Origin: Escherichia phage TH12
Sequence record: MT446390.1
DNA length: 64,000 nucleotides
Strand: one strand, 5' to 3'
This document shows, one piece after another, positions 1-4,962 of the stretch (its first letter is position 1; the number at the start of each line of letters is the position of its first letter). The notes beneath the pieces were generated by a model. The model had not been told where the DNA came from. It saw nothing but the letters and a program-made list of their open reading frames with translations, and did not search any database. The position numbers and the translations under genes were made by a program.

Positions 1-1
1 C

Positions 2-406
2 ATAGGCCATTTAGTAACAAAGAACCCGTCTTTAGCCGTAGCTAAAGCTGAACTTGACAGAATGATCGGTCGTAAATGCAACGGTACAATTACCCTTGAT
101 GAGGCTGAAAAGCTATTTAATGAAGACGTCGATAAAGCCGTTCGCGGAATCTTGGGTAATGCTAAACTTAAACCGGTATATGATTCTTTAGACGCGGTTC
201 GTCGATGTGCATTGGTCAATATGGTCTTCCAAATGGGTGTAGCAGGCGTTGCTGGTTTTACTAATTCTCTTCGTATGCTTCAACAGAAACGTTGGGATGA
301 AGCGGCAGTAAATCTCGCCCAATCTAAATGGTATCGTCAGACACCTAATCGCGCGAAACGCGTAATCTCAACATTTAAAACAGGAACTTGGAAAGCGTAT
401 ATATGA
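2..406 (+). CDS. e: Lysozyme (endolysin), 5'-truncated at window edge
   Basis: Open frame from window start; translation [39 protein letters not shown]...[14 protein letters not shown]...QTPNRAKRV matches T4 lysozyme core; stop TGA 404-406. Confidence 0.95.
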
Positions 407-684
407 AAACATATAGTGAATTTTTATCAGAATCTATTCTTAACGAAGCTACTGACACATTTGCAACTAAGCTAGGTGCAGCTTTGGTTGAAGCCGAAAG
501 TCTATTAGCACGTATTTCTGAACTTGCTAGTAAGATAGATACTCGCAAATTTGAACGTACCAGCGATATCGCTAAGCTTGAAGCCTTGTTACGTATGTGC
601 GATAAACCGGAAGAAATCGCTAAGAACGGCTCGCTGATGAAACAACGTCTTGAAAAATATATTTCAGGCGCTTCAGAAAAATAG
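403..684 (+). CDS. Internal head protein-like (capsid-targeting N-terminus MKTYSEF...)
   Basis: ATG 403 overlaps e stop (ATGA); N-terminus resembles T4 internal-protein capsid targeting sequence MKTYQEFIAE; ORF-track start 388 is TTG. Confidence 0.6.
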
Positions 685-685
685 T

Positions 686-740
686 GTTTACTTCCTCCAA
701 GGGTTTTGATACTATACATTCATCAACTACTTGGAGGAAA
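686..740 (+). promoter_or_regulatory. T4-type early promoter (GTTTAC -35, TAnnnT -10) embedded in 10-bp inverted repeat whose distal arm covers the denV SD
   Basis: gtttac 686-691; tactat ~710-715; arms ttcctccaag 692-701 / cttggaggaa 730-739. Confidence 0.6.
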
Positions 741-742
741 TT

Positions 743-1156
743 ATGACTCGTATCAATTTAACACTTGTTTCTGAACTGACCGATCAACATCTTATGGCTG
801 AGTATCGTGAATTACCACGCGTATTTAGTGCAGTCCGTAAACATGTCCAAAACGGTAAACGTGTAAAGGATTTTAAAATCTCTCCAACATTTATCTTAGG
901 CACAGGTCACGTAACATTCTTTTACGACAAACTTGAATTTTTACGTTTACGACAAATCGAGCTAATCGCTGAATGCTTGAAACGTGGTTTCAAAATCAAG
1001 GACACGACAGTCCAGGATATTTCCGACATCCCTGCCGAATTTCGTAATAATTATGTCCCGTCCGAAGCGTCCGTTGCGATAAGTCAAGCACGCTTAGATG
1101 AAAAAATTGCTCAACGTCCTACTTGGTACAAATACTATGGTAAATCAATTTACTAA
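743..1156 (+). CDS. denV: Endonuclease V (pyrimidine-dimer DNA glycosylase)
   Basis: [12 protein letters not shown]...[13 protein letters not shown]...[22 protein letters not shown]...[12 protein letters not shown] matches T4 DenV; 137 aa; SD GGAGG upstream; track start 731 is TTG. Confidence 0.95.
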
Positions 1157-1162
1157 GGAAAA

Positions 1163-1423
1163 ATGAAAATGTATCAAGAATTTATCATTGAAGCAGATGC
1201 CAAAGGTCCTAAATTTAAAGTTAAAGCTTTCATTGGTGATGCCGAAGACTTTGGCTCATTAAAACGTAATGGGTATTCTTTCTTAGGTGGCGATGGTAAA
1301 GAAATCAACACCTATGCAAAACGTAGTGAAATTGCTTATGTTGTAGTAAATCCTAAAGTAGATGTTGACGATATTGGATACGATTTTAACAACTTCGGAA
1401 TTATTTCTGGCGGTAAAGCTTAA
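1163..1423 (+). CDS. Internal head protein-like (CTS-like N-terminus MKMYQEFIIEA)
   Basis: ATG start; N-terminal motif shared with T4 IP capsid-targeting sequence; 86 aa. Confidence 0.6.
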   Translation: MKMYQEFIIEADAKGPKFKVKAFIGDAEDFGSLKRNGYSFLGGDGKEINTYAKRSEIAYVVVNPKVDVDDIGYDFNNFGIISGGKA

Positions 1424-1426
1424 ATT

Positions 1427-1456
1427 GTTTACGCTTAAGTATTAATATGGTATAAT
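1427..1456 (+). promoter_or_regulatory. T4-type early promoter
   Basis: gtttac 1427-1432, 18-bp spacer, tataat 1451-1456, upstream of ATG 1488. Confidence 0.65.
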
Positions 1457-1487
1457 TACTCTATCAAAACAAACAAGGAAACAAAAA

Positions 1488-1790
1488 ATGAAAACATATC
1501 AAGAATTTATTACTGAAGCGCGAGTGAGTGCAGGTAAATTAGAAGCCGCTATAAATAAAAAGGCCCATTCATTTCATGATTTGTCCGATAAAGACCGTAA
1601 GAAACTTGTAAGCCTTTATATTGACAAAGAGCGTATTCTCGCTCTTCCTGGCGCTAATGAAGGTAAACAGGCCAAGCCTTTGAATGCTGTCGAAAAGAAA
1701 ATTGATAACTTTGCTTCTAAATTCGGTATGTCTATGGATGACCTTCAGCAAGCGGCTATCGAAGCAGCTAAAGTAATTAAAGGTAAATAA
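1488..1790 (+). CDS. Internal head protein (IP family; MKTYQEFITEA N-terminus)
   Basis: 100 aa; near-consensus T4 IP capsid-targeting sequence; own early promoter. Confidence 0.7.
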   Translation: MKTYQEFITEARVSAGKLEAAINKKAHSFHDLSDKDRKKLVSLYIDKERILALPGANEGKQAKPLNAVEKKIDNFASKFGMSMDDLQQAAIEAAKVIKGK

Positions 1791-1903
1791 CAGTTTACTT
1801 TCTCCTAGAATTGTGATAGTATATTCATAATTACTTAGAGGGGTAAATACAGAAATGGACAATTCATGCGCCACGGAATGGCCCAACCTAAAAGAGAAAC
1901 TAA

Positions 1904-2443
1904 ATGAGAACATTTTTAACTGGTCCTTATCTATCCCTGATGAATGCTTTTACACACCATTCTGATGTTAGAGTAGAAGAAATTTGTAAGAACGGTTATG
2001 CCCCACCATTTGAAGACGTACTCAAGCAGTACTGTACACTTCGTTTAGACGGCGGCAGACAATCAGGTAAATCGACTGCAGTAACTAATTTTGCTGTTAA
2101 TTGGCTGTATGACGGTGGAACAGTTATTGTTCTTTCTAATACTTCAGCCTATGCTAAAATTTCTGCTGGCAACATTAAAAAAGAATTTTCTCGTTATTCT
2201 AGCGATGATATTCGATTCCGTTTATTTACCGATTCTGTCCGTAGTTTTATTGGCAATGAAGGTTCTAAATTCCGTGGATTAACGCTTTCTCGTATTCTGT
2301 ACATAATTGACGAGCCTATTAAAGCTCCTGATATGGATAAGATTTACAATGTCCATATTAAAACAGTCCAACACTGTTGCAAAAGCAAATATTGCATCGG
2401 CGGTAATGCTCGTCCTCAATTTTTTGTGATTGGAATGCAATGA
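1904..2443 (+). CDS. P-loop NTPase, unknown function
   Basis: Walker A GGRQSGKST, Walker B-like LYIIDEP; 179 aa. Confidence 0.65.
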   Translation: MRTFLTGPYLSLMNAFTHHSDVRVEEICKNGYAPPFEDVLKQYCTLRLDGGRQSGKSTAVTNFAVNWLYDGGTVIVLSNTSAYAKISAGNIKKEFSRYSSDDIRFRLFTDSVRSFIGNEGSKFRGLTLSRILYIIDEPIKAPDMDKIYNVHIKTVQHCCKSKYCIGGNARPQFFVIGMQ

Positions 2444-2754: not shown

Positions 2755-3117
2755 ATGAAAGCATATCAAATTCTTGAAGGCACACACAAAGGCACTATTT
2801 ATTTTGAAGACGGTACTCAAGCCCGGATTATTGTCTCTAAGACTTTTAAAGAAGACGCTATTGTAGACCCGGAAATTTTCTACGGTTTGAATGCCCGTGA
2901 AATTGAAATTGAACATCAACCTAAAGTTAAAATTGAAGGTGGTCAACACCTGAACGTTAATGTTCTGCGTCGTGAAACTCTGGAAGATGCAGTTAAGCAT
3001 CCAGAAAAATATCCGCAGTTGACCATCCGTGTATCCGGTTATGCAGTTCGCTTTAACTCTCTGACTCCGGAACAGCAGCGTGACGTTATCGCTCGTACCT
3101 TTACTGAGAGTCTATAA
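2755..3117 (+). CDS. GrcA/YfiD-like autonomous glycyl-radical cofactor protein
   Basis: C-terminal [60 protein letters not shown] carries the RVSGY glycyl-radical motif and matches recalled E. coli GrcA/PFL C-terminus; segment is GC-richer than flanks. Confidence 0.85.
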
Positions 3118-4419: not shown

Positions 4420-4962
4420 ATGAGAAAAGCACTACTCGCTGGTCTATTTGCTCTTTCGTTATCAGCACATAGCTCCGAGCATACTTTTAGTAATGTCCAA
4501 CTCGATAACTTGAATTATGCTTATCAGTTTGGGGAACAGTTTTCTAAGGACGGAAAATTTAAAACGCATGAAAATATGCATAAGAAAGGACTTGGATACA
4601 TAATGGCCGCAATACTATGGCAAGAATCATCCGCAGGTATTAATCTTAAAGATAAGAAAGGTCACCATGCGTATGGAATGTTCCAAAACTATCTACCAAC
4701 AATGAGGGCAAGAATTAACCAGCTTGGTTATAATATGACTGATGCCCAAATTAAGAAAATGCTATCTAAGCGGTCTAATTCAGCAAGATGGGCTTATATC
4801 GAATTTTCTTATTGGTTAAATATACATAACGGGGATATAAGAAAAGCTATATCCTCATATAATGCGGGATGGAAGACAAGTGCTGGAAGTAAATATGCTT
4901 CTGAAGTCCTAGAAAAGGCTAATTACCTTAAATCAAATAAACTACTGGAAATAAAAGAATGA
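4420..4962 (+). CDS. Secreted SLT-domain lytic transglycosylase-like protein
   Basis: N-terminal signal peptide MRKALLAGLFALSLSAHS; SLT motifs ILWQESS...GMFQ and YNAG. Confidence 0.75.
   Translation: MRKALLAGLFALSLSAHSSEHTFSNVQLDNLNYAYQFGEQFSKDGKFKTHENMHKKGLGYIMAAILWQESSAGINLKDKKGHHAYGMFQNYLPTMRARINQLGYNMTDAQIKKMLSKRSNSARWAYIEFSYWLNIHNGDIRKAISSYNAGWKTSAGSKYASEVLEKANYLKSNKLLEIKE

Follow-up and report, generated by a model that had tools for sequence, protein, structure and literature searches.

Of all phage proteins, the internal proteins (Ips) of T4-like phages are the earliest to encounter the host cytoplasm. In T4, Ip1, Ip2 and Ip3 are injected inhibitors that each act on a distinct GmrSD type IV enzyme, with Ip2 inhibiting GmrSD(ECOR21) (PMC12373910), and bas37_0260, which is a leader-bearing Ip of phage Bas37, inhibits McrBC (bioRxiv 10.1101/2025.11.20.689424). 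All Ips to which a function has been assigned so far are highly specific inhibitors of modification-dependent restriction enzymes. Mutagenesis of T4 IPIII linked residues 4 and 7 of the capsid-targeting sequence to targeting and residues 8 and 10 to processing, and the protease gp21 cuts after L/I-x-E (PMC9026906). T4-like genomes have two ip loci, e...vs.8 and 57B...trna.4, the first of which is arranged in T4 as e-ipIII-ipII-denV-vs.8.

A sequence-only reading of DNA from Escherichia phage TH12 (MT446390.1) had proposed that three internal-protein-like genes are interleaved with denV and that loci of this kind encode injected anti-restriction proteins. The latter claim agrees with the literature, in which T4 Ip1, Ip2 and Ip3 counter GmrSD (PMC12373910) and another Ip counters McrBC, and these published results make that interpretation the accepted one. 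Here we describe the locus and compare it with its closest known counterparts.

Three genes with T4-type leaders lie between e and vs.8

The window that we analyzed is the whole stretch of 64,000 nucleotides, which matches Shigella phage Shf125875, an RB69-like Mosigvirus, at 100% identity. It opens with the 3' part of the endolysin gene e (1..406, on the plus strand, as are all features below), which ends with a TGA stop at 404-406 and corresponds to RefSeq PI26_gp122, a glycoside hydrolase/lysozyme. Translation and a six-frame scan recovered the three ORFs that had been reported to begin with MK(T/M)Y(Q/S)EF at 403, 1163 and 1488, namely ORF1 (403..684, 93 aa, RefSeq YP_009100663), ORF2 (1163..1423, 86 aa, RefSeq YP_009100661) and ORF3 (1488..1790, 100 aa). 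The interleaved denV lies at 743..1156, between ORF1 and ORF2, and encodes a pyrimidine-dimer DNA glycosylase (endonuclease V) that matches Pfam PF03013 (Pyr_excise; 3.5e-14) and phrog_1183 (3.5e-62) and has the same name in RefSeq; denV is conserved at the ip locus but does not encode an Ip. On the right, the locus ends at a conserved boundary, a vs.8 homologue (1904..2443; phrog_1488, 6e-78), which RefSeq notes as 'similar to RB69 vs.8'.

The N-termini of the three proteins are MKTYSEF (ORF1), MKMYQEFIIE (ORF2) and MKTYQEFITE (ORF3). Tyr4 and Phe7 are present in each leader and are followed at residues 8-10 by L/I-x-E, which reads LSE, IIE and ITE, respectively, and ORF1 contains a second [LI]xE, LNE, at residues 13-15. 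The presence of Y4, F7, L/I8 and E10 in all three bears out the proposed T4 capsid-targeting signature, with which the RefSeq entry for Shf125875 agrees by listing all three genes as internal head or internal virion proteins. A search of the window in all six frames for MK.Y.E[FLIVM] returned only three sites, each of which is the start of one of these ORFs, and a much looser leader pattern found the same three sites only in the 64 kb. In 200 shuffles of the window, chance matches averaged 0.03 and never exceeded 1, compared with the 3 observed. The bodies of the proteins are mutually unrelated, as had been stated: when residues 1-10 were left out, BLASTP among the three gave a best E of about 1 (five-sequence database), and they belong to separate PHROG families (3499 for ORF1, 2667/35655 for ORF2 and 7857 for ORF3).

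All three genes sit between e and vs.8, which makes them syntenic with T4 ipIII/ipII. The same genome also encodes gp21 (head maturation protease) and gp22 (scaffold), at NC_025437.1 105573-107066 outside the window, as well as gp67 and gp68, and its second ip locus encodes Ip1 and Ip7. In other Mosigvirus/Gaprivervirus genomes, further leader-bearing cassettes occupy the same site. The description of the locus as hypervariable held in part when relatives were compared, in that the cassettes between ORF2 and vs.8 vary, IpII included, whereas ORF1 and ORF2 are conserved. These genes are already recognized and annotated as internal head proteins and are ordinary for this phage group.

Starts and early-promoter cassettes

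The start codons of the ORFs are well supported. The ATG of ORF1 (403-405) overlaps the stop of e as ATGA, which suggests that ORF1 is translationally coupled to expression of e. ORF2 begins 6 nt past the denV stop with AAGGA located 5 nt upstream of its start, and homologues from other genera also begin with MK(T/M)Y. In some GenBank records ORF2 begins at Met3 instead, probably because its start was called wrongly.

The spacer before denV (686..742) contains a T4-type early promoter (TTTACT-N17-TACTAT; consensus TTTACW-N17-TAYWAT, PMC4122927) inside a predicted hairpin, in which 692-705 pairs with 727-740 and sequesters the denV Shine-Dalgarno sequence. The predicted fold has an energy of -19.8 kcal/mol (z = -3.6, with 0/200 shuffles equally stable), and its stem shows compensatory changes relative to T4. 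Upstream of ORF3, an early-type sigma-70 promoter (1428..1456; TTTACG-17-TATAAT with a TG extension) is the top promoter-like site in the region, with 10/12 matches. A second early-promoter and hairpin cassette precedes vs.8 (1793..1848; -17.8 kcal/mol, z = -2.6) and proved almost identical to the T4 e/ipIII spacer in a side-by-side comparison, which puts the same cassette at a different junction. The late promoter TATAAATA was not found upstream of ORF1, ORF2 or ORF3. This absence does not count against packaging in our view, since the packaged T4 proteins IPII and IPIII come from genes with the same kind of early-promoter leader that likewise lack TATAAATA.

Family membership of the three proteins

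The sequence-only reading had treated two of the proteins as non-canonical, and neither turned out to be an orphan, with ORF1 falling into the Ip5 family and ORF2 into the RB69ORF125c family. The third, ORF3, matches phrog_7857 (4.5e-55), shares 93% identity with T4 IPII across the 90 residues of the mature protein (BLASTP) and is named 'internal virion protein, IpII' in RefSeq, which by homology makes it the IpII (Ip2) orthologue. Mature ORF3 is a basic protein of 90 aa (pI 9.7), and its Pfam search gave sub-threshold noise only. RB69 lacks ORF3 and has ORF124c/123c in its place. In T4, this 'canonical' IpII has itself been shown to counter restriction.

ORF2 matches phrog_2667 'internal head protein' (8.9e-21) as well as phrog_35655, and is 96% identical to RB69ORF125c, which occupies the equal position immediately after denV. 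On these matches, ORF2 is an ordinary member of the RB69ORF125c family with no difference of note. The family comprises 217 phage records in Mosigvirus, Gaprivervirus and Gelderlandvirus, and the leader is kept in all full-length homologues, even at 66-74% identity in other genera; natural isolates also carry frameshifted or internally deleted alleles. A predicted cut after E10 would yield a mature protein of 76 aa that is near neutral (pI 6.4). The family is narrow, with 12 clusters among 5.8 billion proteins and 6 matches among 1.84 billion representatives, and large protein searches with the ORF1 and ORF2 families returned T4-like phages only, apart from one weak WG-repeat match for ORF2. 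In that match, residues 20-64 align weakly with one unit of a 7-repeat WG protein (P0020; phmmer E = 4e-4, hhalign probability 82%). ORF2 had no match at E <= 1 in Pfam, including WG_beta_rep (PF14903), and none below E = 0.37 in a PDB sequence search. An AlphaFold2 model of ORF2 was unusable for fold comparison (pLDDT 39 from a 5-sequence alignment). A distant relative (P0018) has the leader MQTFHEFLVE and lies on a 521-bp contig without useful context.

ORF1 matches phrog_3499 'internal head protein' (2.1e-46) and is 89% identical to a VR20 protein annotated 'ip5, similar to T6 Ip5'. It is 48% identical over 84 aa (E 1.7e-23) to bas37_0261, the Ip5 of Bas37, which in turn is 96% identical to RB68 Ip5, and tblastn with ORF1 returned 258 Tequatrovirus-type records at about 47-49%. 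These relationships place ORF1, as judged from sequence, in the Ip5 family, which annotations name after T6 Ip5. Cleavage by gp21 is predicted after E10 (LSE) and/or E15 (LNE), the latter within an [LI]xE at 13-15 that is conserved throughout the Ip5 family. The RB69 orthologue has codons 5-12 reshaped by a compensated double frameshift, and the resulting leader, MKTYMNFYQN, retains Y4 and F7 together with the LNE site. Mature ORF1 is near neutral (pI 6.3-8.1), and mature ORF1 and ORF2 differ in this respect from Ip1, Ip2, Ip3 and Ip7, which are basic (pI 9.0-9.7). An AlphaFold2 model of ORF1 is all-helical (pLDDT 72.6); Foldseek searches with it found no match in PDB and only matches of E > 3 in BFVD, and ORF1 had no Pfam match and no PDB sequence match.

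Every Mosigvirus/Gaprivervirus locus examined contains ORF1, which is highly conserved, and relative to VR20 its identity of 89% exceeds the 75-76% of its neighbors, a pattern that a fast arms race would not be expected to leave. In Bas37 growing on K-12, transposon mapping showed bas37_0261 to be non-essential, with 18/18 TA sites hit. Insertions in bas37_0261 were four-fold depleted on UPEC CFT073 (log2FC -2.09, adj. p < 1e-5; HIDEN-SEQ supplement), a signal that comes from a homologue only 48% identical to ORF1, is accompanied by a drop in the adjacent gene (-1.56) and passes without comment by the authors, and they were not depleted on CFE299 (HIDEN-SEQ supplement).

Discussion

We propose, with a probability of about 0.72, that e-ORF1-denV-ORF2-ORF3-vs.8 is the Mosigvirus counterpart of the T4 ipIII/ipII locus and that its three internal head proteins are packaged and injected against restriction. 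Based on sequence features, homology, synteny and the genes for the protease and scaffold, we infer packaging, cleavage, injection and targets along the following route. The 10-residue leader would attach each protein to the scaffolding core of gp22 while the prohead assembles, after which the prohead protease gp21 would strip the leader after Glu10, or in ORF1 also or instead after Glu15. Once mature, the proteins (about 8-10 kDa) would remain in the DNA-filled head, and their ejection with the DNA would shield the modified genome from type IV restriction. Shf125875 has a homologue of the RB69 ORF003c arabinosyltransferase (PMC6024577), and its DNA probably carries ara-hmC rather than glucosyl-hmC. 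By analogy with T4 Ip2, ORF3 would most likely inhibit a GmrSD of the ECOR21 type, and ORF1 and ORF2 most likely each neutralize a different type IV or other early-acting nuclease defense by direct binding. In the searchable literature we found neither genetics nor virion proteomics for ORF1 or ORF2, and likewise no Mosigvirus virion proteomics and no Ip5 or Ip7 data.

If ORF1, ORF2 or both are packaged, their role could be structural or physical, as in core or head assembly, DNA condensation or ejection, rather than anti-defense. Mutants in T4 IPIII are slower at assembling heads, build up polyheads and have a burst of about 40% of normal (PMC9026906), lysines of the roughly 1000 Ip molecules in each head touch DNA (PMC3012670), and the unusual conservation of ORF1 across every locus examined resembles that of a housekeeping gene. 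However, the near-neutral charge of mature ORF1 and ORF2 suggests that they would be poor DNA counter-ions, the Ip5 orthologue is dispensable to Bas37 on K-12 by the transposon mapping above, the damaged ORF2 alleles occur in natural isolates, and the functions assigned to Ips are all anti-restriction, which together lead us to regard a structural role as improbable. We give still less credence to the idea that the leader of ORF1, ORF2 or both is left over from descent or from recombination where ip genes have conserved 5' ends, such that the proteins are unpackaged and active only once made in the infected cell. Met3 in ORF2 and Ser5 in ORF1 deviate from MKTYQEF, several annotations begin ORF2 at Met3, the late promoter is missing from all three genes and the RB69 leader of ORF1 is scrambled; against this, positions 3 and 5 are not among the critical residues, Y4, F7, L/I8 and E10 are intact, and the leader is conserved in divergent homologues from three genera. 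Even the RB69 variant keeps Y4, F7 and LNE, and the promoter argument is countered by the packaging of T4 ipII and ipIII and by the coupling of ORF1 to e.

A different possibility, which we hold tentatively and consider the less likely course, is that ORF1 and ORF2 are injected anti-defense proteins with targets beyond GmrSD, such as McrBC-like enzymes, other type IV enzymes specific for ara-hmC or non-restriction immunity. The leader-bearing inhibitor of McrBC from Bas37 is a precedent, ten ip genes tried on five extra GmrSD systems gave no hits, the weak WG-repeat likeness of ORF2 is unlike any known Ip, and DNA that is probably ara-hmC and not glucosyl-hmC would expose the phage to different restriction threats. 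In contrast, ORF1 and ORF2 are unlike bas37_0260 except in the leader, and ORF2 homologues occur in Gelderlandvirus, where S16 and STML-198 have glucosyltransferase homologues, which suggests that the ORF2 family is probably not tied to arabinosylation; we accordingly rejected as unlikely a tie between ORF2 and arabinosyl-hmC phages. One specific form of such targeting, which we rate as unlikely, has ORF1 acting against a system in UPEC such as CFT073 and ORF2 acting as a neutral, single-WG-unit-like binder of another class of early-acting immunity protein. The CFT073 idea is based on the strain-specific depletion of Ip5-orthologue mutants (HIDEN-SEQ supplement). If ORF1 and ORF2 did have targets outside GmrSD, the arsenal that T4-like phages deliver by means of the leader would reach past type IV restriction.

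Our preferred reading remains that of three packaged and injected anti-restriction proteins, and its value lies in a tidy, testable candidate list rather than in a discovery. Knowledge of the targets of Ip5, RB69ORF125c and most named Ip families would make it easier to understand and forecast which wild E. coli and Shigella the T4-like phages used in therapy can infect, with the twist that the DNA of this phage is probably arabinosylated rather than glucosylated.

Among known systems, T4 IPII shares with ORF3 its length, its leader bar one residue and its basic pI. T4 ipII lies between ipIII and denV, whereas ORF3 lies across denV and adjoins vs.8, and unlike T4, the phage with ORF3 probably has ara-hmC DNA. 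Ip5 of T6, RB68 and Bas37 has in common with ORF1 its size class, leader and [LI]xE at 13-15; its gene is located in the other ip locus (57B-trna.4) in Tequatrovirus, whereas in Mosigvirus and Gaprivervirus it directly follows e and overlaps its stop. T4 IPI*, an inhibitor of GmrSD(CT596) with an NMR structure, has the 76 aa predicted for mature ORF2 and would share its route of leader, cleavage and injection. However, hhalign of the ORF2 profile with T4 IPI covers residues 1-8 only (probability 3.7%), and IPI is basic and cut after residue 19, whereas ORF2 is near neutral with a predicted cut after E10. We rejected ORF2 as an IPI* analogue, which it equals in mature length, for want of any similarity. 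The McrBC inhibitor bas37_0260 has a leader, an ip-locus origin and a similar size (77 aa) in common with the ORFs of the window. We rejected its homology to ORF1 or ORF2, with which it shares nothing beyond the leader, and it likewise shows no similarity to ORF3 past that point. An analogous logic is found in the Dar proteins of phage P1 (DarA/DarB/Hdf), which act against restriction, are taken up by the head as it assembles and are injected along with the DNA. The Dar proteins are unrelated and much larger, enter the head through another incorporation pathway and target type I R-M.

The ORF1, ORF2 and ORF3 products share the T4 capsid-targeting leader

Over its first 2.5 kb, the window matches Shigella phage Shf125875 at 100% identity (NC_025437.1, reverse strand 62946-65445); this phage is a Mosigvirus of the RB69 group within the T4-like phages. 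On the + strand, the locus consists of the endolysin gene e (ending at 406), ORF1 (403-684), denV (743-1156), ORF2 (1163-1423), ORF3 (1488-1790) and vs.8 (1904-2443). Downstream, a vs.6 homologue (2755-3117), annotated as the autonomous glycyl radical cofactor GrcA, has a C-terminal glycyl-radical motif and, as in T4, represents a spare glycyl-radical domain on the phage. The vs.1 homologue (4420-4962, 180 aa) begins with an apparent signal peptide (MRKALLAGLFALSLSAHSS), suggesting that this protein is exported or periplasmic.

The sequence-only reading had assigned the T4 internal-protein signature to the ORFs starting at 403, 1163 and 1488. Scanning the full 64 kb in six frames bore this out, as MK.Y.E[FLIVM] matched exactly three sites, all of them these ORF starts, against a mean of 0.03 in shuffled window sequence, and a much looser leader pattern added no sites in the window. 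Mutagenesis of T4 IPIII established that the first 10 residues are enough for capsid targeting, with residues 4 and 7 important for targeting and 8 and 10 for processing by the prohead protease gp21, which cleaves after L/I-x-E (PMC9026906). Y4, F7, L/I8 and E10 are kept in all three ORFs (MKTYQEFITE in ORF3), and ORF2 homologues in other genera keep the leader despite just 66-74% identity. The bodies were also confirmed to be unrelated to one another: BLASTP without the first ten residues revealed no mutual similarity, and in the same comparison ORF3 was 93% identical to T4 IPII.

The three proteins belong to known internal head protein families

RefSeq annotates the Shf125875 copies of ORF1 and ORF2 as 'internal head protein', noting similarity to RB69ORF127c and RB69ORF125c, respectively, and that of ORF3 as 'internal virion protein, IpII', in agreement with PHROG assignments (3499 for ORF1, 2667/35655 for ORF2 and 7857 for ORF3). 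Because this exact genome is so annotated and the families are known, the identification of these genes as internal head proteins is not new. Based on sequence, ORF3 is an IpII orthologue and ORF1 is a member of the Ip5 family. The ORF1 family occurs in 496 phage records (tblastn), including a VR20 orthologue with 89% identity that is annotated 'ip5, similar to T6 Ip5', and Ip5 of RB68 and Bas37 is 48% identical to ORF1 (E 1.7e-23). ORF1 has a second predicted gp21 site, LNE at residues 13-15, which is conserved through the Ip5 family, RB69 included. Relative to ORF1 (403-450), RB69ORF127c (RB69 sequence L005, 1211-1260) contains a pair of compensating frameshifts (-1/+1) that changes residues 5-12 to MKTYMNFYQNLS and leaves Tyr4, Phe7 and LNE 13-15 intact, which suggests that Ip5 proteins are cleaved after Glu15 rather than Glu10. 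The predicted structure of ORF1 is all-helical, and no structural neighbor of the model was found.

The ORF2 family is narrow. Its 217 phage records come from Mosigvirus, Gaprivervirus and Gelderlandvirus, and protein searches yielded 12 clusters out of 5.8 billion proteins and 6 matches in a set of 1.84 billion representatives. Some isolates have frameshifted or internally deleted alleles. In PQ572755, OR352944, PP400782 and OR352940, the orthologue is annotated from Met3 (MYQEF...), which drops the first two leader residues (1163-1168); Shine-Dalgarno spacing and cross-genus conservation favor the upstream ATG as the likely start. A usable structural model of ORF2 was not obtained, and residues 20-64 are weakly similar to a single repeat from a WG beta-repeat protein. 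Residues 14-22, KGPKFKVKA (1202-1228), match KGPKFVPKA of T4 and Mosigvirus IPIII at 7/9 residues, a likeness that may be the scar of a recombination event or a coincidence; in two natural ORF2 deletion alleles (P0019 and P0011), GPK is fused straight to VDVDD. Mature ORF1 (pI 6.3-8.1) and ORF2 (pI 6.4) are near neutral, which fits less well with an internal protein role, whereas Ip1, Ip2, Ip3 and Ip7 are basic (pI 9.0-9.7).

The locus varies in gene content

We used a 2.5-kb query to compare the locus in its 40 nearest relatives, all with 96.5% identity or more. The locus matched the query length in 22 of these relatives and was longer by 160-960 bp through insertions in the other 18. In the four longer relatives sequenced through, the extra DNA consisted of leader-bearing cassettes, all between ORF2 and vs.8, that add an Ip10-like gene of 104 aa, an IpIII-like gene of 192 aa or both genes. 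In RB69, a truncated Ip10-like gene and ORF123c stand in place of IpII, which is missing. Between Shf125875 and VR20, amino-acid identity was 89% for ORF1 and 73% for ORF2, compared with 76% for e and 75% for denV, so the sequences of ORF1 and ORF2 change no faster than those of their neighbors. Taken together, these results indicate a locus with hyperplastic gene content, of which ORF1 and ORF2 are the stable members. The two genes read as 'non-canonical' from the sequence alone belong to families that RefSeq and PHROG already list as internal head proteins.

Early-type promoters and hairpins occupy the spacers

The ORF1 start codon overlaps the e stop codon (ATGA), the ORF2 start lies 6 nt downstream of the denV stop codon, and ORF3 is preceded by its own predicted early-type promoter. 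No TATAAATA late promoter was found upstream of ORF1, ORF2 or ORF3; T4 ipII and ipIII have the same arrangement, so its absence is no argument against packaging. Between ORF1 and denV (686-742), an early-type promoter (TTTACT-N17-TACTAT) lies within a stable hairpin (stem 692-705/727-740; -19.8 kcal/mol, z = -3.6), and the denV Shine-Dalgarno GGAGG falls in the 3' arm of the stem. This arrangement would mask the denV ribosome-binding site in upstream read-through transcripts and leave it free in those from the internal promoter. T4 shares this layout, and the stem differences between the two phages are compensatory (CCAAG/CTTGG versus CTGTAG/CTACAG). Furthermore, the ipII-vs.8 spacer (1790-1848) is almost identical to the T4 e-ipIII spacer (T4 sequence L003, 4503-4440, - strand), which indicates one promoter and hairpin cassette at different gene junctions. 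These cassettes resemble PeSL elements, which have been proposed to mediate such cassette shuffling (PMC4122927), and their placement is consistent with PeSL-type shuffling of ip genes.

Candidate functions in anti-restriction

Homology and the intact leader suggest that the three proteins most likely load onto the scaffolding core, undergo trimming by gp21, stay in the head and are then injected. The same genome encodes gp21 and the core proteins gp22, gp67 and gp68, and a second ip locus outside the window holds two further internal proteins, Ip1 and Ip7. A literature search found no Mosigvirus virion proteomics. The interpretation of these genes as internal proteins and candidate injected anti-defense factors matches the accepted view.

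Transposon data for Bas37 provide a lead on ORF1. In the HIDEN-SEQ supplement, insertions in its Ip5 orthologue bas37_0261 (Bas37 sequence L015, 664-921) are depleted four-fold on UPEC CFT073 (log2FC -2.09, adj. p < 1e-5) and unchanged on CFE299; as a hint for ORF1 this depletion carries the caveats that adjacent bas37_0262 also falls on CFT073 (-1.56) and that bas37_0261 is just 48% identical to ORF1. The text of the HIDEN-SEQ paper itself does not report the depletion.

Each of T4 Ip1, Ip2 and Ip3 blocks its own GmrSD type IV restriction enzyme, and none of them cross-protects (PMC12373910). A further leader-bearing protein, from Bas37, inhibits McrBC (bioRxiv 10.1101/2025.11.20.689424). Neither ORF1 nor ORF2 resembles mature T4 IPI or this McrBC inhibitor (bas37_0260) past the leader. 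As an IpII, ORF3 probably inhibits GmrSD of the ECOR21 type, and the probable targets of ORF1 and ORF2 are other modification-dependent nucleases. Shf125875 carries an RB69-type putative arabinosyltransferase (PMC6024577), which suggests that its DNA probably contains ara-hmC and that the restriction enzymes relevant to this phage may not be the ones that threaten T4.
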